Source: an uncultured Gammaproteobacteria bacterium (GTDB lineage Bacteria; Patescibacteriota; Patescibacteriia; UBA1558; GWA2-36-10). From it: 64,000 bases of DNA. Positions 2,906-63,859 of this stretch are shown here, in pieces. The stretch is taken from NCBI GenBank assembly GCA_964633905.1, contig CAZWIT010000002.1, positions 63,209-127,208 on the forward strand. The letters run 5' to 3'. Numbering within the stretch: the stretch's first letter is position 1; every line of letters begins with the position of its first letter. Position numbers and translations under genes: made by a program. The notes under the pieces were generated by a model. That model worked only from the letters and a program-made list of their open reading frames with translations, did not search any database and was not told the origin of the DNA.

Positions 2906-5252
<2,347 letters not shown>

Positions 5253-7085: not shown

Positions 7086-10034
7086 ATGGATTTAAATAAA
7101 TTAAATGAAGCTCAAAAACAGGCAGTAATGCACGATGCTGGCCCAGTTATCTTGATTGCTGGTGCTGGTACGGGTAAAACGACGGTTATTAGTCAAAGGA
7201 TTGCTTATCTAATTGAACAAAAAAAAGCCAAACCAGAAGAGATTTTAGCTGTTACTTTTACCGAAAAAGCAGCTGGAGAAATGTTAGAGCGGGTAGATAC
7301 GCTATTGCCCTTAGGTTATGCTGATTTGTGGATTAATACCTTTCATGGTTTTTGCGAAAAGGTTTTAAAAGAATATGCTTTAGATATTGGTGTGCCAAAT
7401 GATTTTAGGGTACTAGACAAAACTTCAGCTTGGCTTTTGGTTAGAGAAAATTTAGAAAAATTTGATTTGGATTATTATCGTCCTTTAGGCAACCCAACTA
7501 AATTTATTCATGCGCTCTTGAGTCATTTTTCGCGTTGTAAAGATGAAGTGATCTATCCCGAAGATTATTTAGAATATGCTGACAATTTGCAGCTTGATCA
7601 GGATTTAGCCATGGATCAAGAAGAAGTAGCGCAAGAAGCATTGCGCATCAAAGAGATTGCTAATGCTTATCATAGCTATCAACAAATTTTGCTGGATAAT
7701 AATGCGCTGGACTTTGGTGATTTGATTAATTACACTTTACGTTTATTTAAAAAACGTCCTTTAGTATTAAGGCATTTTCGTCAGCAATTTAAATATATCT
7801 TAGTTGATGAATTTCAAGATACCAATTGGGCGCAGTATGAGCTTATTAAAATTTTAGCAGCCCCTAAAAATAATCTGATGGTAGTAGGTGATGATGATCA
7901 GGCGATTTATAAATTTCGGGGAGCGGCTATTGCTAATATTTTAAGTTTTCAAAAAGATTATAGTAAGGATAAAAAACATCCTTTAACCCAAATATTTTTA
8001 ACTGATAATTATCGTTCCGGACAAAAAATACTAGATGTAGCTTATGATTTTATTCAATTAAACAATCCGGATCGTTTAGAATATCAATTAAAAAAATCAA
8101 AGAAGAAATCTAGTGGTATTTTAAATAAAAAATTAATTAGCCACAGCGAAGTTGCAGGCGAAGTGCAGGTATTAGGATTTACTGATAGCGCGGCTGAGAT
8201 TGAAGGTATTGTAAATAAAATAGTAGTTTTAAAAAAAGCTGATTCTAAATTATTATGGTCAGATTTTGCTATTTTAGTACGTGCCAATGATGCCGCTACG
8301 GGCTTTGTTAGCTTTATGCGTAAAGTAGGCTTACCGCATCAATTTATGGCTTCGCGCGGACTCTATAATCAAGATATAGTTTTAGATATTATTGCCTATT
8401 TAAAGCTGCTTGATAATTATCATGAGTCTTCGGCTTTATTTAGAATTTTAAGTTTACCTCTTTTTTCTTTGGAATCAAGAAGCATTGTTAATTTAAGTCA
8501 TTTAGCTAGTAAAAAGGCTTGGAGTTTATTTGCTGCACTACAAAATTATCGTTTGCATTTAGATTTGCCAGTTAGCGATCAGCGGACAATTGAAAAATTT
8601 ATAAGCAGTTTAAATCAGCACTCTCAATTAACTAAAAATAAGCCAGTCTCGCAAGTAATTTATGCTTGGCTAGAAGATAGTGGTTATTTGCAGCTTTTGA
8701 CTTTAGAACAAAATCAATACAATCAAGAACAACTAGGTTTTTTAAATCAGTTTTATCGTAAAATTAAGGCTTGGGAAGAACAGCATATTGGCAATGCTTC
8801 GGTGCGTGAATTTTTAACACAATTAAATTGGGAGTTAGACTCAGGGGAGCAGGGAGCCCTAGAAATGGCAGACGACGCTGGACCAGATGCGATTAGAATC
8901 ATGACTGTTCATGGCGCTAAGGGTTTAGAATTTAAGTATGTTTTTGTGACTAATTTGGTACAGCTACGATTCCCAAGTAATGAGCGTCGTGATCCGATTG
9001 AATTGCCAGAACTGTTTATTAAAGAGCAATTGCCCCAAGGCGATGCTCATTTGCAAGAAGAACGGCGTTTATTTTATGTGGCTTTAACGCGTGCTAAACA
9101 GGCTGTGTTTTTGACTTGGGCTAAAGATTATGGTGGTAGTCGCCAGAAAAAACCCTCTCGCTTTTTAGAAGAAATTAATTTACCTAGTGAGCAAGTAGCA
9201 GAAACTGCCAGTATCAATGAAGTAGCTATAGTCAAAGCTGTGCCTCAAGCTTTAAAATACGAAAAGCCAAAAGCTTTTTCTTTTTCTCAGCTTAAAGCTT
9301 ATGAAACTTGTCCGCGCCAATATTTTTACTCTTACGTAGTTAAAATTCCGGTTAAAGGTAGTCCCCAGTTTAGTTTTGGTAAAACTATGCATAATACTTT
9401 GCAAAAATTTTACCAACAAATAATGGAGGGTAAAAAAGCACAGCAAGGTGATTTATTTAAAGTTAAGGCAGAATTTAAAATACCTAGTCTTAATGATTTA
9501 TTAAAAATTTATGAAAATGAATGGCTAGATGATTGGTATAATTCGGCATCAGAAAAAGAAAAATATCGTAAGCTGGGGAGTGATATTTTAAAAGAGTATT
9601 ACCAGAAAAATGGACCTCATTTTTCCGTGCCTTTATTTTTAGAAAAAGGTTTTAATATTAAAGTTGATAATTTTACGGTCAGAGGTTTTATTGATCGGGT
9701 TGATGTGGTAGATAATGCCTGGGAGGTTATTGATTATAAAACTGGTAAAGCTAAAGATGCTAGCATTACTTTTGATGATAAAAAACAATTATTAATTTAT
9801 CAGTTGGCTGCTGAAGAAGTTTGGCAAACGCAAGTTAAAGCTCTTACTTTTTATTATTTAAATAATAATACGCCAGTATCTTTTGTGGGTACTGATAAAG
9901 AAAAGCTAAAAGTTAAAGAATGGATGCTTGATATTATTGGGCAGATTTTGGCCGATGATTTTACGGCTTTGCCTGGGCATGCTTGTCAGTTTTGTGATTA
10001 TAAACAAATTTGTCCATTTGTTAAAAATGTCTAG
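7086..10034 (+). CDS. UvrD/PcrA-family SF1 DNA helicase fused to a C-terminal RecB/Cas4-type PD-(D/E)XK nuclease with a 4-Cys (Fe-S) cluster
   Basis: Helicase motifs GAGTGKT, DEFQDT, VGDDDQAIYKFRGA, VALTRAK; C-terminus has CPRQYFYSY ... IDRVD ... EVIDYKTGK ... CQFCDYKQICPF. Confidence 0.85.
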   Translation: MDLNKLNEAQKQAVMHDAGPVILIAGAGTGKTTVISQRIAYLIEQKKAKPEEILAVTFTEKAAGEMLERVDTLLPLGYADLWINTFHGFCEKVLKEYALDIGVPNDFRVLDKTSAWLLVRENLEKFDLDYYRPLGNPTKFIHALLSHFSRCKDEVIYPEDYLEYADNLQLDQDLAMDQEEVAQEALRIKEIANAYHSYQQILLDNNALDFGDLINYTLRLFKKRPLVLRHFRQQFKYILVDEFQDTNWAQYELIKILAAPKNNLMVVGDDDQAIYKFRGAAIANILSFQKDYSKDKKHPLTQIFLTDNYRSGQKILDVAYDFIQLNNPDRLEYQLKKSKKKSSGILNKKLISHSEVAGEVQVLGFTDSAAEIEGIVNKIVVLKKADSKLLWSDFAILVRANDAATGFVSFMRKVGLPHQFMASRGLYNQDIVLDIIAYLKLLDNYHESSALFRILSLPLFSLESRSIVNLSHLASKKAWSLFAALQNYRLHLDLPVSDQRTIEKFISSLNQHSQLTKNKPVSQVIYAWLEDSGYLQLLTLEQNQYNQEQLGFLNQFYRKIKAWEEQHIGNASVREFLTQLNWELDSGEQGALEMADDAGPDAIRIMTVHGAKGLEFKYVFVTNLVQLRFPSNERRDPIELPELFIKEQLPQGDAHLQEERRLFYVALTRAKQAVFLTWAKDYGGSRQKKPSRFLEEINLPSEQVAETASINEVAIVKAVPQALKYEKPKAFSFSQLKAYETCPRQYFYSYVVKIPVKGSPQFSFGKTMHNTLQKFYQQIMEGKKAQQGDLFKVKAEFKIPSLNDLLKIYENEWLDDWYNSASEKEKYRKLGSDILKEYYQKNGPHFSVPLFLEKGFNIKVDNFTVRGFIDRVDVVDNAWEVIDYKTGKAKDASITFDDKKQLLIYQLAAEEVWQTQVKALTFYYLNNNTPVSFVGTDKEKLKVKEWMLDIIGQILADDFTALPGHACQFCDYKQICPFVKNV

Positions 10035-54651: not shown

Positions 54652-55164
54652 ATGCAACAACACATTGAAAGAACATTAGTACTACTCAAGCCGGATGCTA
54701 TTAATCGTGGTTTGATTGGCGAAATATTGCATCGTTTTGAGCGTACTGGTTTAAAAATTATTGGTTTGAAAATGGTTTGGTCAGATCAAGATACAGCTGC
54801 CAAACATTACACTGAAGATTTGGCTAAAAGACGCGGAGAAAAAGTAAGGGATCTGATGATTAATATGATTACCTCTGGTCCAATTGTTGCTATTGCTATT
54901 GAAGGCGTTGAAGCTGTTGAGGTAGTACGTAAAATGGTTGGTGATACTGAGCCCAAAAAAGCAGCCCCTGGAACTATTCGTGGGGATTATGCGCATGTGT
55001 CTTATGGTTATGCTGATAAAAATGAAATTGCCGTGTTTAATTTAATTCATGCTTCTTCTAATGCTGAAGAAGGTGTTCAAGAAATAAATGTCTGGTTTAA
55101 CGATTTTGAGCTCCAAGATTTTCGTCCCGATTATATTAAACATACTATTGCTCGTAAAGAGTAA
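54652..55164 (+). CDS. ndk: nucleoside diphosphate kinase
   Basis: NDK fold; active-site His in NLIHASSN; ~25-aa insertion. Confidence 0.85.
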   Translation: MQQHIERTLVLLKPDAINRGLIGEILHRFERTGLKIIGLKMVWSDQDTAAKHYTEDLAKRRGEKVRDLMINMITSGPIVAIAIEGVEAVEVVRKMVGDTEPKKAAPGTIRGDYAHVSYGYADKNEIAVFNLIHASSNAEEGVQEINVWFNDFELQDFRPDYIKHTIARKE

Positions 55165-55177
55165 AATAATAATTTTA

Positions 55178-55210
55178 ATCCAGCTCCTTAGCTAAGGAGC
55201 TGGATTTTTA
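55178..55210 (+). terminator. Rho-independent terminator (ATCCAGCTCCTTAGC taa GGAGCTGGAT + T-run)
   Basis: Long perfect stem. Confidence 0.8.
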
Positions 55211-55259
55211 TACGGCTTCAATATTTTATGCAAAAAAAGGCATTATACGGTGGAGCTTA

Positions 55260-55550
55260 ATTGAAATTTGTTAGTCATTTTAGAATATGCTATACTCAAA
55301 ATAGGCTAGAGTTTTTTGGATAATATTTATAACTCTACAAACTAACTCCTTGGGAGACTAATATCAGTTTAGAGCCGTGGCTTTAACTTGCGGTCACCCA
55401 CCTTTTTAAAGGAGTTAATTATTATCTAAATACTAGCCGCAGTCGTCACTAAAGTAGGACACTAATTATTAATACGTGCACTATGTCAGATGACTTAGCA
55501 AAAGGCGTCTAGCCTGTAGTAAGATACGGCCAAGACGTCTTTTGTTTTTT
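55260..55550 (+). ncRNA. candidate structured ncRNA (unknown class) with upstream promoter-like TTGAAA box and 3' intrinsic terminator (GGCGTCT ... AGACGTC + T-run)
   Basis: No ORF; several internal palindromes (GTCAGATGAC; AACTCC...GGAGTT); terminator at ~55503-55550. Confidence 0.35.
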
Positions 55551-55609
55551 ACTAAATTTGTTTTTTTAGATATAATATAAGTATTGATTATTTAAAGATG
55601 TATAATTTT

Positions 55610-55753
55610 ATGGTAAAAGAAGAAGCGGAAAAATTAATTGAAAAAGCTAAAAAAGAAGAATTAAATCCCGAAGAAAAATTGGTCTTACTTAAGTATATAA
55701 ATAGTTTAGTCGGTGATTTAAAACAAGATATTGATAATTTAAATAATAATTAA
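55610..55753 (+). CDS. small hypothetical protein (47 aa, charged helical), below ORF-track threshold
   Basis: ATG...TAA ORF MVKEEAEKLIEKAKKEELNPEEKLVLLKYINSLVGDLKQDIDNLNNN; no clear SD. Confidence 0.3.
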   Translation: MVKEEAEKLIEKAKKEELNPEEKLVLLKYINSLVGDLKQDIDNLNNN

Positions 55754-55757
55754 AAAT

Positions 55758-56174
55758 ATGATGGGTGAAAACATGTGGCCTGATTCAAATACAGGAGAAA
55801 AACCAATGGTGGAACAAGAACAAAAGCTCGAAGGGGAAATTGATAATCAATTTCAGGAGCTTACTGCTGGTTTAGATAGTGTGCAGGCATCTTTGGAAAA
55901 TTTAGATCAAGATAATAATACTCCAGAACGCACTCAGGCTCTTAAAAAAATTTGGGAAGGATATAAGAAAATTGAAAGTACCGTTAATATACTTTTAATG
56001 ATGTATGGGAGTACTACCATTGGTTCTAGTGTTCATAAAATATTTACTCACCCAGGGGATAATGAGGGCAATATAGCATCATTGATCACTGGTGTAGCAG
56101 CTTTATCAGTAGCTGTAGCTGGGTTTATTCGTGAAGAAAAAAACCATAAAGCTAAATTAGAAGGCAATGCTTAG
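55758..56174 (+). CDS. hypothetical protein with C-terminal TM helix
   Basis: ORF with acidic N-terminus and hydrophobic GNIASLITGVAALSVAVAGFI. Confidence 0.55.
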   Translation: MMGENMWPDSNTGEKPMVEQEQKLEGEIDNQFQELTAGLDSVQASLENLDQDNNTPERTQALKKIWEGYKKIESTVNILLMMYGSTTIGSSVHKIFTHPGDNEGNIASLITGVAALSVAVAGFIREEKNHKAKLEGNA

Positions 56175-56194: not shown

Positions 56195-56325
56195 AAAAAC
56201 CCCCATTATTTTTTATTATTGTCATCCTGAATTTATTTCAGGATCTCCAATTGTAGAGTGCTACTTGGAGATGCAGAAACAAGTTCGGCATGACAGCTTT
56301 AGGAGTTAGGGGGTTTTAGATTTAG
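56195..56325. other. ~130-nt compound stem-loop (outer AAAACCCCC/GGGGGTTTT, inner TGTCAT/ATGACA, two apical hairpins) between convergent genes; bidirectional terminator or small structured RNA
   Basis: Nested inverted repeats read directly; T-run on the minus-strand side after rpmB. Confidence 0.45.
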
Positions 56326-57269: not shown

Positions 57270-57327
57270 TCAAATCCGTTCTTTTTTCCCCTGTCAATAT
57301 AAACATTGTCTCAAGGAGGAGGGTTAG

Positions 57328-57525
57328 ATGAAGGCTTTGCTAAAAAGGGCCGGCATTTTGCTGGCTGCGAAGCGCGAAGAAATCGGGCGTAAGCGTCGTA
57401 TCAGAGAATTGCGGCAAGAGAGTGAACTTATTTTCCAGGAAGCTATGGGTAGAGTTATCTGCCAAAAGCCTAATGGCGGTACGCTTGCCAAAGAAGCGGC
57501 TGACGACGAAGTCTATTCTGTCTAG
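57328..57525 (+). CDS. small basic protein (65 aa) in a GC-rich (~48%) island, strong SD AAGGAGGAG
   Basis: ORF with canonical RBS spacing, own promoter and own terminator; composition atypical for this genome. Confidence 0.55.
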   Translation: MKALLKRAGILLAAKREEIGRKRRIRELRQESELIFQEAMGRVICQKPNGGTLAKEAADDEVYSV

Positions 57526-57532
57526 CTAATAT

Positions 57533-57571
57533 TACCCAATCCTGCTACTAGCAGGTGAGGGTATTTTTTTA
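57533..57571 (+). terminator. Rho-independent terminator (TACCC aat CCTGC tacta GCAGG tga GGGTA + T7)
   Basis: Hairpin plus TTTTTTT. Confidence 0.75.
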
Positions 57572-57587
57572 TTGCCTAATTTAGGCC

Positions 57588-57616
57588 TTGACAAGTTTTA
57601 ATATTTTTGTTAGAGT
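57588..57616 (+). promoter_or_regulatory. sigma70-like promoter TTGACA-17-TAGAGT driving the GC-rich RNA element
   Basis: Read directly. Confidence 0.45.
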
Positions 57617-57639
57617 GCTTTTTGTCTATATTTTCGTAC

Positions 57640-57905
57640 CTCCAATATTAATGGAAAAACGGAGACAAGCGCCCTGTCATGTTGGTTATGAAAACGTATT
57701 GGCCACCGCGGGGCCTGCGTTTTTGGTCGGTGTGCATCACCTGGCCTAACCCAATTGGGTAGTTCTCCGTTTAGAGGAGATTGAGATAGCGCGCCTGCAA
57801 AACAGGTGAGCCTCGCGTCCGATGGGAACTACGCCCACGATAGTCGCGAGCCGCAGTCTCGCTCCTCGAGGGGTTCGTGCTCGTCCGCGGACCCCTTTTT
57901 TATTT
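57640..57905 (+). ncRNA. GC-rich (~58%) highly structured RNA element (~270 nt) ending in an intrinsic terminator, upstream of rpsL; class unknown (ncRNA or attenuating leader)
   Basis: Multiple helices (CGGAGA...TCTCCG long-range; GCGAG ccgcagt CTCGC; ACCCAATTGGGT; terminator GGGGTTCG...CGCGGACCCC + T6). Confidence 0.45.
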
Positions 57906-58009
57906 GTTTGGGCTTGACTTAGCTTTTTTTTTGTGCTATTTTATTGAAGCATTTTATAGCCCCTCGGGGCGATAATTATTTTTATAAAAACAATTTATTT
58001 TGAATTTTA

Positions 58010-58993: not shown

Positions 58994-61096
58994 ATGCCTA
59001 GAACACATTCTTTAGAAAAAGTCAGAAATATTGGCATTATTGCCCACATCGACGCTGGTAAAACTACGGTTTCCGAGCGCATCCTTTTTTATACTGGTAA
59101 AAAACATAAAATTGGTGAAGTGCACGAAGGGGCTGCCGAAATGGATTGGATGGAACAAGAAAAAGAACGTGGCATTACTATCACTTCGGCTGCTACTACT
59201 TGTTTTTGGGCATTGCCTGATTGGCTAGGTGGTGATAAGGCTAATATCAATATTATTGATACCCCAGGTCACGTAGATTTTACTGTAGAAGTAGAAAGAT
59301 CCTTACGTGTTCTTGATGGTGGTGTGGTAGTATTTGATGGTGTGGCTGGTGTAGAGCCACAGTCTGAAACTGTTTGGCGCCAAGCTGATAAATATAATGT
59401 ACCTCGCATTGCTTTTGTAAACAAAATGGATCGCATGGGTGCTAATTTTTATTATGACCTAGATACTATTCATGAACGTTTAGTCAAACATGCCTTACCA
59501 ATGCAGTTGCCAATCGGTGCGGCTGAAACTTTTGAAGGTATTATCAATCTCTTAGAAAGAGAAGCTTGGTATTATTTAGATGAAGATGGTAAGAATTTTG
59601 AAAAACGTGAAGTGCCAGCTGATATGAAAGATAAGGTAGAAGAATATCGTGCCAAGCTTATTGAAGCTATTGTTGAGAATGATGAAAAATTAATGGATCA
59701 ATATCTTTCTGGTAAAGAACCAGAATTAATTGATTTAAAAAAAGCTTTACGTCAAGCTGTTATTAATAATAAGATTGTACCTATTCTTTGTGGTTCAGCT
59801 TTGAAAAATAAAGGCGTCCAGTTTTTATTAGATGCTGTTACTGCTTATTTGCCATCTCCTTTGGATGTACCTGAAATTACTGGCACTGAGCCCAGAAATG
59901 AAGCCAATGTTATTACTGTTAAACCTGAAGATGGTGAGCCATTTACCGCTTTAGCTTTTAAAATTGCTACTGATCCTTATGTGGGACGACTTACTTTTAT
60001 TAGAGTTTACTCTGGTACTTTAAGCTCTGGTTCCTATGTTTTGAATGCTAATAAAGAAAAGAAAGAACGCATTGGTCGTATTTTACGTATGCATGCTAAT
60101 CACAGAGAGGAAGTTTCTGAAATTTTTGCTGGGGACATTGTAGCGGTTGTGGGTTTAAAAGATACAACCACTGGCAATACTCTATCTGATGTTGACAGAG
60201 CGGTTATTTTAGAAAGTATGGATTTCCCAGAGCCAGTTATTCATGTGGCTGTTGAGCCAAAAACCAAAGCTGACCAAGAAAAAATGGGCATGGCTTTGTC
60301 AAAACTAGCTGAAGAAGATCCTACTTTTACAGTTAGATCAGATGAAGAAACTAATCAAACTATTATTGGTGGTATGGGCGAACTACACCTTGATATTATT
60401 GTTGATCGTATGCGTCGCGAATTTGGTGTAGAGGCCAATGTTGGTGCTCCACAAGTAGCTTACAAAGAAACTATCAAAGCTTCAGCTGAGGGTGAGGGTA
60501 AATATATTAAACAATCAGGTGGTCGCGGACAATATGGTCATTGCTGGTTAAGATTAGAGCCATTAGAACGCGGTGCTGGTTTTGAGTTTGTTGATGAGAT
60601 TAAAGGTGGTTTGATCCCTAGAGAATTTATTGCTCCAATTGAAAAGGGTATTAAAGAAACTTTAGATAATGGCGTTTTGGCTGGTTATAAAGTAGAAGAT
60701 GTTAGGGCAGCTGTTTATGATGGCTCTTACCATGACGTTGACTCTTCGGAAGCTGCTTTTAAGATTGCAGGTAGCATGGCTTTTAAGGCTGCCTTTAATA
60801 AAGCTAAGCCAATTATTTTGGAACCAATTATGAAAGTAGAAGTGGTAACTCCAGAACAATATATGGGCGATGTTATTGGCGATATTAACTCCAAACGTGG
60901 TCAGGTAAATGAAATGATAGATAGGGCTAATGCTAAAGTAATTCATGCTTTTGTACCGTTATCAGAAATGTTTGGCTATGCTACTTCTTTACGGTCAATG
61001 ACTCAAGGTAGAGCTAGTTATAGTATGGAATTTTATCAATATCAAGAAGTGCCAACTAATATTGCTGAAGCAATCAAGAAAAAAAATAACGAATAA
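58994..61096 (+). CDS. fusA: elongation factor G
   Basis: [10 protein letters not shown]1 box, 700 aa. Confidence 0.98.
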
Positions 61097-61146: not shown

Positions 61147-61199
61147 TATAACAATTTTGGGTTAACAAAAAACCCCATTTATGTAATAGAGTTTTTTGT

Positions 61200-61760
61200 T
61201 CATCTGAAGCCACTAGATCTTAATAGCTAGAGAGCTATAACCTAGTGGACTCGGATAAAGGGGAGAAACTGTTGGCTGGCGGCGGGTCGCGTTGAACGCG
61301 ACCCGCCGCACTGATGCGTTATTCGGATGCTTCTCCCTTTGACTATTTTTACCTGTAGTCAGCAGGATTCCGTTGCCCCGGAATGACGGGAGTTGTTTGT
61401 GAGGATTACCGGATATTATGCGGCCTCCGGAGAGTCGCGGGAACTACCCGACTACTGGGCCTATGGTTCGAACAGTCCAAACATCACGATCCTTTCTGCT
61501 GCACCCTCTTGCAGCAAATGGGTCCTGAAGTACAGGAGTGGTTGCGACCTTATATGGTTTCCGGGTATTATCGGCCCCCGGTGGATCTGGTCGCACGCAG
61601 TTCTTGGGCGGGCGCTGCGCGGTCGTATTTAACCGCGAGCAAAATTGTGCCGATGACTGCGTTTTTTAGACCACTGGCCTAGAGCAACAGTCGAATCACT
61701 ACAATCTCCCTTCTTTTCGGTTTAGCGGAGCGCATGAGCGCTCCCGTTTTGTTTTTTTAC
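61200..61760 (+). ncRNA. GC-rich (~57%) noncoding island inserted between fusA and tuf; candidate large structured ncRNA of unknown class, ending in intrinsic terminator (GGAGCGC atga GCGCTCC + T-run)
   Basis: 13-bp GC stem GCGGCGGGTCGCG ttgaa CGCGACCCGCCGC; GGGGAGAAAC...GCTTCTCCC helix; CCACTAG...CTAGTGG helix; no convincing ORF. Confidence 0.4.
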
Positions 61761-62094
61761 CAAACTGTATCACAGGTTTTGTGGATGACAGTCTGGCAAC
61801 TGCGGGTGTTTAGCCATCTTAGAGCATTCAACCCGCCTTTAAAGGCTAGTGTTTTACAAACACTGTAATGGAGGTAAGGATATAAGCTGATGCTTATATC
61901 AGGTGGTAAACTCGAAATTATCAAGCCGTAAAGCCTGATAAAATCAGGGTTGTAGGACCTGTTCTTAGTCCTCCAATACAGTATTTGTAAAAAAGCCTTT
62001 ATTTATTGGTTTTTTAAGAGCAATAGAGCATTATATCATATAATTAATATTTTGTCAATAGTATTGTAGCCATAAATAAATTTAAAATATTAAT

Positions 62095-62145: not shown

Positions 62146-62490
62146 ATGTTAAATGTTCAAAACCTGGAAGCAGTACTAAAATTAGTCGCCCAAACTAAGG
62201 ATCGAGTGATTATTTTATCAGAAAATTATGATCCATTGGTGATTATGAATTTAGAAAACTACAGGGATTTATTAGCTAAAAATACTGTAAAAAAGGGCAA
62301 TGGTCAGCAAGTAGTTTTAGACAATATTAATAAGGACATTGCTTTATTGCATGCCAGTGAAAATGATGTTCCAGATTTAGCCGACTATAATTTAGATCAG
62401 TTTAAAGTAGAGGAAGATAATGCTGCTAGTGAAAATAAACCAGTAGATACCGAAGAAGAAGAAAAATATTATTTAGAACCAGTTGATTAA
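62146..62490 (+). CDS. Phd/YefM-like antitoxin-fold protein with acidic C-terminal tail; orphan (no toxin gene adjacent)
   Basis: DRVIILSENYDPLVIMNLENYRDLLA resembles the Phd/YefM N-terminal strand-helix; tuf follows directly. Confidence 0.45.
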   Translation: MLNVQNLEAVLKLVAQTKDRVIILSENYDPLVIMNLENYRDLLAKNTVKKGNGQQVVLDNINKDIALLHASENDVPDLADYNLDQFKVEEDNAASENKPVDTEEEEKYYLEPVD

Positions 62491-62671: not shown

Positions 62672-63859
62672 ATGGCAGAAGTATTTAAAAGAGAAAAAAC
62701 TCATGTCAACGTTGGTACTATTGGCCACGTTGATCATGGCAAAACCACTTTAACAGCCGCTATCTTAAAAGTGATTAGCGCAACTGGTGGTGTGGCTCAA
62801 CAAAAAAATGTTGACCAAATTGACGCTGCTCCTGAAGAGCGCGAACGCGGTATTACTATTGCTACCGCTCACGTGGAATATGAAACTGAAAAACGTCACT
62901 ATGCCCACGTTGACTGTCCAGGTCACGCTGACTATGTCAAAAATATGATTACTGGTGCCGCCCAGATGGATGGTGCCGTTTTGGTAGTTTCAGCTGCCGA
63001 TGGTCCCATGCCTCAAACTCGTGAGCATATTTTGCTTGCCCGTCAGGTTGGTGTGCCTTTCATCGTAGTCTATTTAAATAAAATGGACCAAGTTGATGAT
63101 CCTGAGCTAGTCGATTTAGTAGAAGAAGAAATCAGAGATTTATTGAAAAAATATGAATTCCCTGGTGATAAAACTCCTATTATTCGTGGTTCAGCCTTAA
63201 AGGCTTTGGAAGACCCTGCTGGCGAAGCTGGTAAATCAATTACTGAATTACTAAAAGCTTTGGATGATTATATTCCAGATCCAGTTCGTGATACTGAGCA
63301 TCCTTTCTTATTACCAATTGAAGACATTTTCTCAATTGAAGGTCGTGGTACAGTAGTTACTGGTCGTATTGAACGTGGTTTAATCAAATTAAACGAAGAA
63401 GTAGAAATCGTTGGTTTGCATGAAACCAAAAAGACCGTGGTTACTGGTATTGAAATGTTTAACAAGCAATTAGAAGAAGGTCGTGCTGGTGATAATGCCG
63501 GTTTGCTTTTACGCGGTACCAAAAAAGATGAAGTTGAACGTGGTCAGGTTTTAGCTAAACCTGGTAGTATTACACCTCATACTGACTTTGAAGCTAAAGT
63601 TTATATTTTAAGCAAAGAAGAAGGTGGTCGTCATACTCCATTTTTCAAAGGCTATAAACCACAGTTTTACATCCGTACTACTGACGTTACTGGTGAAGTT
63701 ATTTTACCAGAAGGTACTGAAATGGTAATGCCTGGTGACACTATTAATTTAACTATTAAATTAATTCATCCAGTCGCTTTAGAAGAAAAATCACGTTTTG
63801 CTATCCGCGAAGGTGGTCATACTGTTGGCGCTGGTACTGTTACCAAAATCATTAAATAA
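62672..63859 (+). CDS. tuf: elongation factor Tu
   Basis: [18 protein letters not shown] motifs. Confidence 0.99.

Follow-up and report, generated by a model that had tools for sequence, protein, structure and literature searches.

The question considered here is what is encoded in the apparently empty stretch of DNA that follows ndk, the gene for nucleoside-diphosphate kinase, on a contig assigned to the Patescibacteria. These organisms, also known as the candidate phyla radiation (CPR), have among the smallest of bacterial genomes and are almost entirely uncultured. The DNA analyzed (hereafter, the window) comprises 64,000 nucleotides (nt) of assembly GCA_964633905.1 (contig CAZWIT010000002.1, positions 63,209-127,208, forward strand); its host is placed in the GTDB lineage Bacteria; Patescibacteriota; Patescibacteriia; UBA1558; GWA2-36-10, and it is AT-rich, with a guanine-plus-cytosine (GC) content of ~33%. 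ndk itself (54652-55164, + strand, 170 aa) was taken from the list of open reading frames (ORFs), and a Pfam NDK domain is recorded for an identical protein. The gene is followed by an intrinsic terminator (55177-55211, +), which an inverted-repeat search and the sequence resolve as a perfect 15-bp hairpin (55177-55206) and then TTTTT. From 55196 to 55597, no ORF of 30 aa or more is present on either strand, the next one beginning at 55598. A preliminary description of the locus had already noted the ndk terminator and the lack of ORFs behind it, both of which were borne out, and had proposed that the stretch is an independently transcribed small RNA of ~250-290 nt. That proposal is supported by the sequence comparisons described below, the predicted length of ~249 nt lying at the low end of the range. 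The segment 55303-55551 (+) is very probably a real stand-alone structured RNA gene. The explanation that best covers the observations as a whole, and which deserves good but slightly less confidence, is a small RNA (sRNA) of ~250 nt that folds stably, would be transcribed on its own and act in trans, and represents a new family.

A probable transcription unit conserved downstream of ndk

The stretch has a sigma-70-type promoter of its own, which the promoter scan identified as TTGTTA-17-TG-TATACT. The -35 box TTGTTA (55268-55273, +), with which a TTGnnn box is aligned in relatives, is separated by a 17-nt spacer from the extended -10 element TGCTATACT, a TG-extended TATACT (55288-55296, +). 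The earlier claim of a separate promoter therefore holds in its essential part, and the -35 box has to be reassigned, since 24 nt separate the TTGAAA named at first (55261-55266) from the -10 hexamer. The motif TGYTATAnT was found in all 15 members of the family that were checked (eight searched directly and seven aligned, with two reading TGCTATGAT), and in each of them it is placed at a fixed distance, 6-8 nt upstream of the first helix (P1). L075, the most distant member, has a perfect TTGACA-N16-TATAAT promoter.

At the other end, a Rho-independent terminator (55497-55551, +), recognized from the fold and as an inverted repeat with compensatory changes, consists of a long hairpin (55497-55546, arms 55499-55518 and 55525-55544, -24.7 kcal/mol) and the run UUUUGUUUUUU, as the preliminary description had anticipated. 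Such a hairpin (-15 to -27 kcal/mol, with compensatory changes), followed by a U-run, is present in each of the 13 members whose 3′ domain is canonical, and a hairpin plus U-run ends 14 of the 15 members aligned at full length, including L074 despite its different 3′ domain; the U-run is missing in L073. A simple terminator scan made no call at the 55497-55551 hairpin, the long, interrupted stem of which probably lies outside the stem and loop rules of the scan. The predicted transcript (55303-55551, +), with its start deduced from the promoter and its 3′ end placed at the terminator U-tract, corresponds to the conserved block in the alignments. In the window, the 5′ end of the RNA (55300-55319) is also complementary to the 5′ arm of the terminator (55497-55518; -23.6 versus -13.6 kcal/mol for shuffled sequences). 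This complementarity takes in a second copy of CUAGCC, and is not kept in L005 or the other relatives.

Relatives were collected with Ndk as the anchor, by a scan of species-representative genomes, look-ups of Ndk homologues and one metagenome pattern scan. At least 17 loci contain a homologue of the RNA, namely the window, L005, L002, L004, L050, L001, L064, L063, L065, L066, L068 and L070-L075. L061 and L062 represent the organism of the window itself, with identical contigs for ndk and the RNA that derive from the runs SRR13355620 and DRR784968. In blastn comparisons, the block is 88% identical to the window in L005 and 71-74% identical in L002, L004, L050 and L001; the remaining loci were added by nhmmer and cmsearch, and the cmsearch E-values of the 17 members range from 1e-32 to 5e-6. 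The 5′ domain of the window scores 145 bits (E = 6e-29), and the covariance models find one copy within the window. The conserved block of ~270 nt spans the -35 box to the terminator U-tract, and the flanks on both sides are unalignable. The comparison with relatives that had been proposed as a check thus yielded the opposite of a lack of conservation or covariation: the RNA is conserved at 17 loci, with compensatory changes.

The hosts are Patescibacteria-type contigs, for which the source names, where given, are Patescibacteria group, Parcubacteria or Staskawiczbacteria, and their Ndk proteins are 68-96% identical to that of the window. A second model (R2) added no members at the ndk loci of Saccharibacteria, Woesearchaeota and others, at L076 and L077 (Ndk 69-71%) or in the whole window. 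A pattern scan of viral contigs gave 19 matches, none of which was confirmed by a covariance model, and all of them are therefore regarded as chance. The metagenome pattern scan with AACTCTACAANNNNACTCCTTGGG returned two contigs, L063 and L064, which indicates that the lineage is rare in that metagenome collection. As far as these sequences tell, the family is confined to one clade of Patescibacteria with genomes of the Parcubacteria/Staskawiczbacteria type. Several of the host metagenome-assembled genomes (L002-L005, L050) carry the record label “uncultured Gammaproteobacteria bacterium”; these bins are probably mislabelled, as they agree with Patescibacteria contigs in gene content and synteny.

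Covariation and architecture of the RNA

The + strand from 55296 to 55552 folds with -77.1 kcal/mol (z = -5.35), and none of 200 shuffled sequences folded as well, compared with a z of only -3.2 for the minus strand of 55215-55560. The + strand is the transcribed one, because G-U pairs, which are frequent in the helices (the pair 66-102 is UG in 10 sequences and CG in 7), would turn into A-C mismatches if the minus strand were transcribed, and because the T-run comes after the hairpin on the + strand only. RNAalifold predicted 72 pairs from a MAFFT alignment of seven sequences, 12 of them with compensatory double changes. A 17-sequence alignment of helices P2-P5, which was fitted to the model and consists of related sequences, so that its covariation figures are somewhat inflated, has standard pairs in 92% of the cells, with both sides changing in 29 of 36 pairs. 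None of 500 shuffles of this alignment reached any of five measures, and when the 3′ partner was slid by 1-3 columns, pairing was down to 35-49%, with a covariation score of ~0.1 instead of 0.54. P1 lies outside the model and was tested separately with cognate duplexes; it forms in all 17 members, with a mean of -10.0 kcal/mol for cognate strands versus -5.6 (standard deviation 2.8) for cross-clade combinations. Covariation beyond phylogeny, which generally marks a structured RNA, was accordingly found in the P2-P5 alignment, the MAFFT alignment and the P1 cognate test.

All of the elements described in the following are on the + strand. Helix mapping and cmsearch delimit a 5′ domain of ~140 nt (55304-55438) that is closed by P1, GGCUAG/CUAGCC in the window (55304-55309/55433-55438) and GGUUGC/GCAACU, UAGUUCCUU/AAGGAACUA or GUAGCUU/AAGCUAC as variants. 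P2 (55315-55325/55420-55430), in which 9 of 10 pairs change on both sides, is followed on the 5′ strand by an unpaired segment (55326-55342) that separates it from P3 and contains the invariant bulge AUAACUCUACAA (55329-55340), single-stranded in both the minimum free energy (MFE) and the consensus folds. The sequence AA(C)UCUACAA of this bulge is invariant across 15 aligned members, and has diverged in L075 only, in which P4 and P5 are retained. P3, UAACUCCU/AGGAGUUA (55343-55350/55410-55417), changes on both sides in 7 of 9 pairs, and P4, UGGG-A-GACU/GGUC-A-CCCA with an A-A mismatch (55351-55359/55392-55400), combines an invariant GGG/CCC core with compensatory changes, such as GA/UC to AU/AU, in the remainder. 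The hairpin P5 (55365-55390) has the tetraloop CGUG (55376-55379), of the YKKG type in the family; all nine of its pairs change on both sides and 96.7% of the cells are paired. Between P4 and P3, the 3′ strand forms an AU-rich bulge (55401-55409) of variable sequence, which contains a small hairpin in some members. The 5′ domain is succeeded by P6, a hairpin of AGUCGUC/GAUGACU with an AU-rich apical loop (55441-55495; fold and alignment); L073, L074 and L075 have other structured 3′ domains in its place. In L073 (3788-3896) and L074 (3743-3874), the alternative 3′ domain extends up to purA and includes the helices AUCGNUUUG/CAAANCGAU, GYCUCA/UGAGGC and UAGAC/GUCUA, with compensatory changes between both loci.

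The palindromes pointed out in the preliminary description fared differently. AACTCC...GGAGTT corresponds to P3 and GCCGTGGC to the tip of P5, and both are covarying helices. The local palindrome GTCAGATGAC is not shared by relatives, which read GAAAGATGAC or GTTAGATGAC at this place; its GAUGAC half belongs to P6, as the 3′ strand that pairs with GUCGUC ~50 nt upstream. Two further pairing schemes were considered and rejected. A pseudoknot between the P5 loop (GUGG) and ACCCAC, weighed by eye, gains no support from the variants, and P3 is unlikely to be a Shine-Dalgarno/anti-Shine-Dalgarno pair (ACUCCUU/AAGGAGU), as distant members have unrelated P3 sequences.

Relation to known families, mode of action and alternative explanations

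No known family was recognized at the locus. Rfam 15 (4227 covariance models, including those of 6S RNA, signal recognition particle RNA, RNase P RNA, tmRNA, 5S rRNA, T-box and all riboswitch classes) gave no match at the gathering threshold in the window or in 12 related loci (89.6 kb). In E-value mode, nothing with E < 10 overlaps 55300-55550, and the related locus L066 (4600-4900) had two chance-level matches only (mir-790 and sR11). The Rfam comparison that had been suggested for the candidate was thereby carried out, and assigned it to no known family. ARAGORN likewise detected no tRNA or tmRNA gene, so that the whole 64-kb window is devoid of tRNA, tmRNA and gathering-level Rfam matches. 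A reading of GCGGUCACCCACC as 5S rRNA or as a reverse-complement T-box was discarded for lack of an Rfam signal, and the strand is wrong for a T-box. In the literature on non-coding RNAs (ncRNAs) of CPR/Patescibacteria or on 6S RNA, no description of an ndk-adjacent RNA was found, nor was a published description of Patescibacteria ncRNAs past the standard housekeeping set. On the basis of these searches, the predicted RNA at 55303-55551 is a previously undescribed family, of the stand-alone structured bacterial sRNA kind.

It is conceivable how such an RNA would operate. Transcription would start at the near-consensus extended -10 sigma-70 promoter and stop at the strong intrinsic terminator. 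The functional core would be the ~140-nt 5′ domain, stacked as a coaxial rod of P1-P2 and P3-P4-P5 that presents the invariant single strand of 12-17 nt, AUAACUCUACAA, as a one-sided bulge between P2 and P3. The bulge adjoins the invariant GGG/CCC of P4 and the UGCGG junction (core GGG...UGCGG..ACCCAC), and these elements together probably constitute the functional surface, because conservation concentrates there while the helices vary freely. The 3′ part, composed of P6 and the terminator, may be a more variable module for stability and termination. The RNA is proposed to act in trans, with the bulge on its rigid helical scaffold serving as the recognition surface. Base-pairing of the bulge with another RNA is the most likely mechanism, although it can be put forward only tentatively; binding of a protein, either within a ribonucleoprotein (RNP) or by sequestering, is a possible but less favored second choice, which includes the 6S-like role discussed below.

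Several observations weigh against a new trans-acting sRNA. The GC content of the candidate locus (0.34-0.36) is not above the genome background; a rise in GC is common for structured RNAs in AT-rich genomes. The complement of the bulge, TTGTAGAGTT, has eight matches with at most one mismatch in the window versus 6.5 expected, which is no enrichment, and the idea of a universal seed is weakened by the divergence of the bulge in L075. A purely trans role does not account for the strict linkage to ndk. Every sequence of the family comes from a metagenome-assembled contig, and the inflation of the covariation figures mentioned above must be borne in mind, for which the MAFFT-only alignment of seven sequences agrees in direction with the model-fitted result. 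On account of the ndk linkage, a functional tie to ndk or nucleotide sensing is kept as a minority reading.

Among the alternatives, a riboswitch-type cis-regulator would have the 5′ domain as an aptamer for a ligand, perhaps a nucleotide, and the 3′ hairpins as its expression platform, thereby controlling read-through into the genes for HAD phosphatase or purA, or the antisense transcription of a convergent rpmB. The order of a complex, P1-closed conserved domain and then a variable 3′ region with a terminator suits this idea, as do the neighbors in nucleotide metabolism: ndk is always upstream, and the next gene encodes a HAD hydrolase in L002, L004, L050 and L068 or is purA in L073 and L074. 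However, a leader would occupy a constant position in the 5′ untranslated region (UTR) of its gene, and the next gene varies among convergent rpmB, HAD, purA and small ORFs. It is rpmB in convergent orientation at at least 6 of the 17 loci (L005, L001, L066, L070, L071 and L072), and the RNA is therefore a unit of its own rather than a leader; in L075, the next gene is ~480 nt away, and the RNA is kept where the HAD or purA gene is missing. Nor was a conserved antiterminator, mutually exclusive with the terminator as in a riboswitch, detected: the best partners of the terminator arms differ from member to member, and in 12 of 13 they do not surpass shuffled controls, the window being the exception; the very stable terminator is compatible with the folded 5′ domain, the two coexisting in the MFE fold. 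Inspection by eye revealed no obvious separate promoter for the HAD gene in L002 and L004, but a promoter-like TTGCCA-18-TAGATT in L068. The absence of a U-run ahead of purA in L073 and the different structured 3′ domain of L073 and L074 also speak for a switch, and if some members do regulate in cis, this domain is the strongest sign of it that is left. Because the downstream gene varies and no antiterminator is conserved, a riboswitch or leader role is regarded as improbable. An analogue of 6S RNA is improbable too. Such an RNA would mimic an open promoter and bind the RNA polymerase holoenzyme, with the bulge as the template of a product RNA (pRNA) predicted to be its complement, 5′-GUUGUAGAGUUAU. 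The irregular rod with a large, conserved and helix-flanked single strand on its 5′ strand, the strong housekeeping-type promoter and the retention in streamlined genomes, where few ncRNAs survive, are all reminiscent of 6S RNA, and Rfam found no 6S RNA in the fetched sequences, which cover small parts of the genomes only. By contrast, no similarity to RF00013 appears even at E < 10, and the bulge is one-sided, ~17 nt with 0-1 nt opposite, instead of the two-sided central bubble of 6S RNA, the 3′-strand bulge being 9 bp off and not conserved in sequence. The rod measures only ~140 nt, while 6S RNAs have roughly 150-200 nt, and an extra 3′ domain of ~110 nt is attached to it.

The RNA could also belong to the transcription unit of ndk, as a structured 3′ UTR or a 3′-UTR-derived RNA that stabilizes or regulates the ndk mRNA and is not autonomous. 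It is located directly after ndk on the same strand at 17 of 17 loci; this linkage persists in L075, where the remaining synteny is lost and no convincing ndk terminator precedes the RNA. Nevertheless, this explanation is very improbable, given that the extended -10 promoter is conserved immediately upstream of P1 in all members checked, that ndk has a strong terminator of its own in the window and most relatives, and that unrelated mobile palindromic inserts between ndk and the RNA promoter (L001, L002, L063 and L064) have left the RNA undisturbed. The least credible of the explanations, which deserves hardly any weight, is that there is no functional RNA, and that the block is conserved intergenic DNA (remnants of promoter and terminator, or a protein-binding region) or a tiny protein-coding gene. 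The unelevated GC content fits that case, and a mini-ORF of nine codons, MSDDLAKGV (MxDDLxKGV), recurs in close relatives. This mini-ORF was rejected as a gene: it has no Shine-Dalgarno sequence, is shifted in frame in L001 and L005, and consists of 4-5 codons in L068, L070 and L072. In addition, the compensatory changes observed in five helices and P1 are not what selection acting on DNA or a peptide produces.

The independently transcribed, trans-acting sRNA is thus the reading that accommodates most of the data. It is tempting to speculate further that, in ultra-small CPR bacteria, the RNA is a lineage-specific housekeeping RNP or regulatory RNA that works unlike any known bacterial RNA, doubtful as this is at present. 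It might then bind RNA polymerase or the ribosome, the invariant strand AACUCUACAA serving as template or decoy, or it might be an Ndk-coupled nucleotide-sensing RNA that acts in trans or controls the antisense transcription of rpmB.

Genomic surroundings and comparison with known RNAs

Downstream of the RNA, the window contains a pair of ORFs of 51 aa (55598-55753) and 138 aa (55758-56174) without Pfam matches. The pair is shared with L050 (4392-4547 and 4555-4953, the second of 132 aa), between the RNA and rpmB, and is missing from L005, the nearest relative. The 138-aa ORF is separated from the convergent rpmB by a palindrome (56208-56320; ccccc...tgtcatcctgaatttatttcaggatctcc...ggagatgcagaaacaagttcggcatgaca...ggggg) resembling a miniature inverted-repeat transposable element (MITE). 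Copies akin to it occur in L002 (631-705, between ndk and the RNA promoter, in reverse orientation) and L065 (1640-1700), and the element looks mobile because these related copies occupy other positions. A second type of palindromic insert, rich in GC and enclosing another hairpin (GCCCGCCGACCC...GGGTCGGCGGGC), is present in L001 (~4530-4680), L064 (~7850-7975, - strand) and L063 (~930-1030), where it sits between ndk and the RNA promoter and both the RNA and the promoter are intact.

Two other segments of the window stand out by their composition. The region 57300-57950, upstream of rpsL (58010), has a GC content of 0.46-0.61 versus a background of 0.33 and contains a 65-aa ORF without a Pfam match; it is kept only in L005 (87% over 786 nt), other relatives sharing the final ~95 nt, and a weak terminator-like match to sX14 (E = 0.014) was all that Rfam returned. 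The second, of ~0.9 kb (61150-61990, GC 0.5-0.55), lies between fusA (58994-61096) and a Phd/YefM-like ORF (62146-62490; Pfam E = 2.5e-5, below the cut-off). It holds a long GC hairpin (~61279-61310) and a 99-aa ORF without a Pfam match, and may be an insertion or a second unannotated RNA. The 395-aa ORF after the Phd/YefM-like one (62672-63859) is taken to be tuf, judged from its size and position.

It is likely that the ndk-adjacent RNA is important to its host cells, because the promoter, the covarying fold and the exposed strand persist down to 68% Ndk identity. The family offers a defined structure, with 17 sequences, a covariance model and clear boundaries, and metatranscriptomics, pull-downs and ligand screens can be aimed at it; the annotation of CPR genomes, in which this locus is currently blank, could gain from it. 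Hundreds of candidate orphan structured RNAs are already known. Until a function is found, the RNA is of moderate weight as one more of them, though it is well supported and comes from an under-explored lineage of minimal genomes.

Comparison with established systems places the RNA among several of them without making it identical to any. DapZ and MicL are type-I 3′-UTR-derived sRNAs with an internal promoter, and the RNA resembles them in that it adjoins the 3′ end of a protein gene on the same strand and has its own promoter, a Rho-independent terminator and an exposed conserved “seed.” It differs from them in that the ndk terminator precedes its promoter in the window, and in being far more structured than typical seed-type sRNAs. 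With terminating riboswitches, it shares a conserved domain closed by P1, a variable region, an intrinsic terminator and the proximity of nucleotide-metabolism genes; unlike them, it has an inconsistent or convergent downstream gene, no conserved terminator/antiterminator switch and no match to a known aptamer. The rod, the conserved single strand on the 5′ side, the housekeeping-type promoter and a plausible sequestering of protein recall 6S RNA (ssrS, RF00013), from which the one-sided bulge in place of the central bubble, the shorter length, the extra 3′ domain and the lack of a match at E < 10 set it apart. The raiA-motif RNA and, more loosely, OLE and ROOL (Breaker-lab motif surveys) stand for the orphan structured ncRNAs of bacteria that have a promoter and a terminator to themselves. 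The ndk-adjacent RNA does not match the Rfam 15 models of these three, and is distinguished from them by its Patescibacteria host, its smaller core of ~140 nt and its strict linkage to ndk. Like RNAs of the raiA-motif type, it is an orphan that would be encoded by a stand-alone gene of one lineage, with a covarying fold of multiple helices and conserved nucleotides in its loops and junctions.

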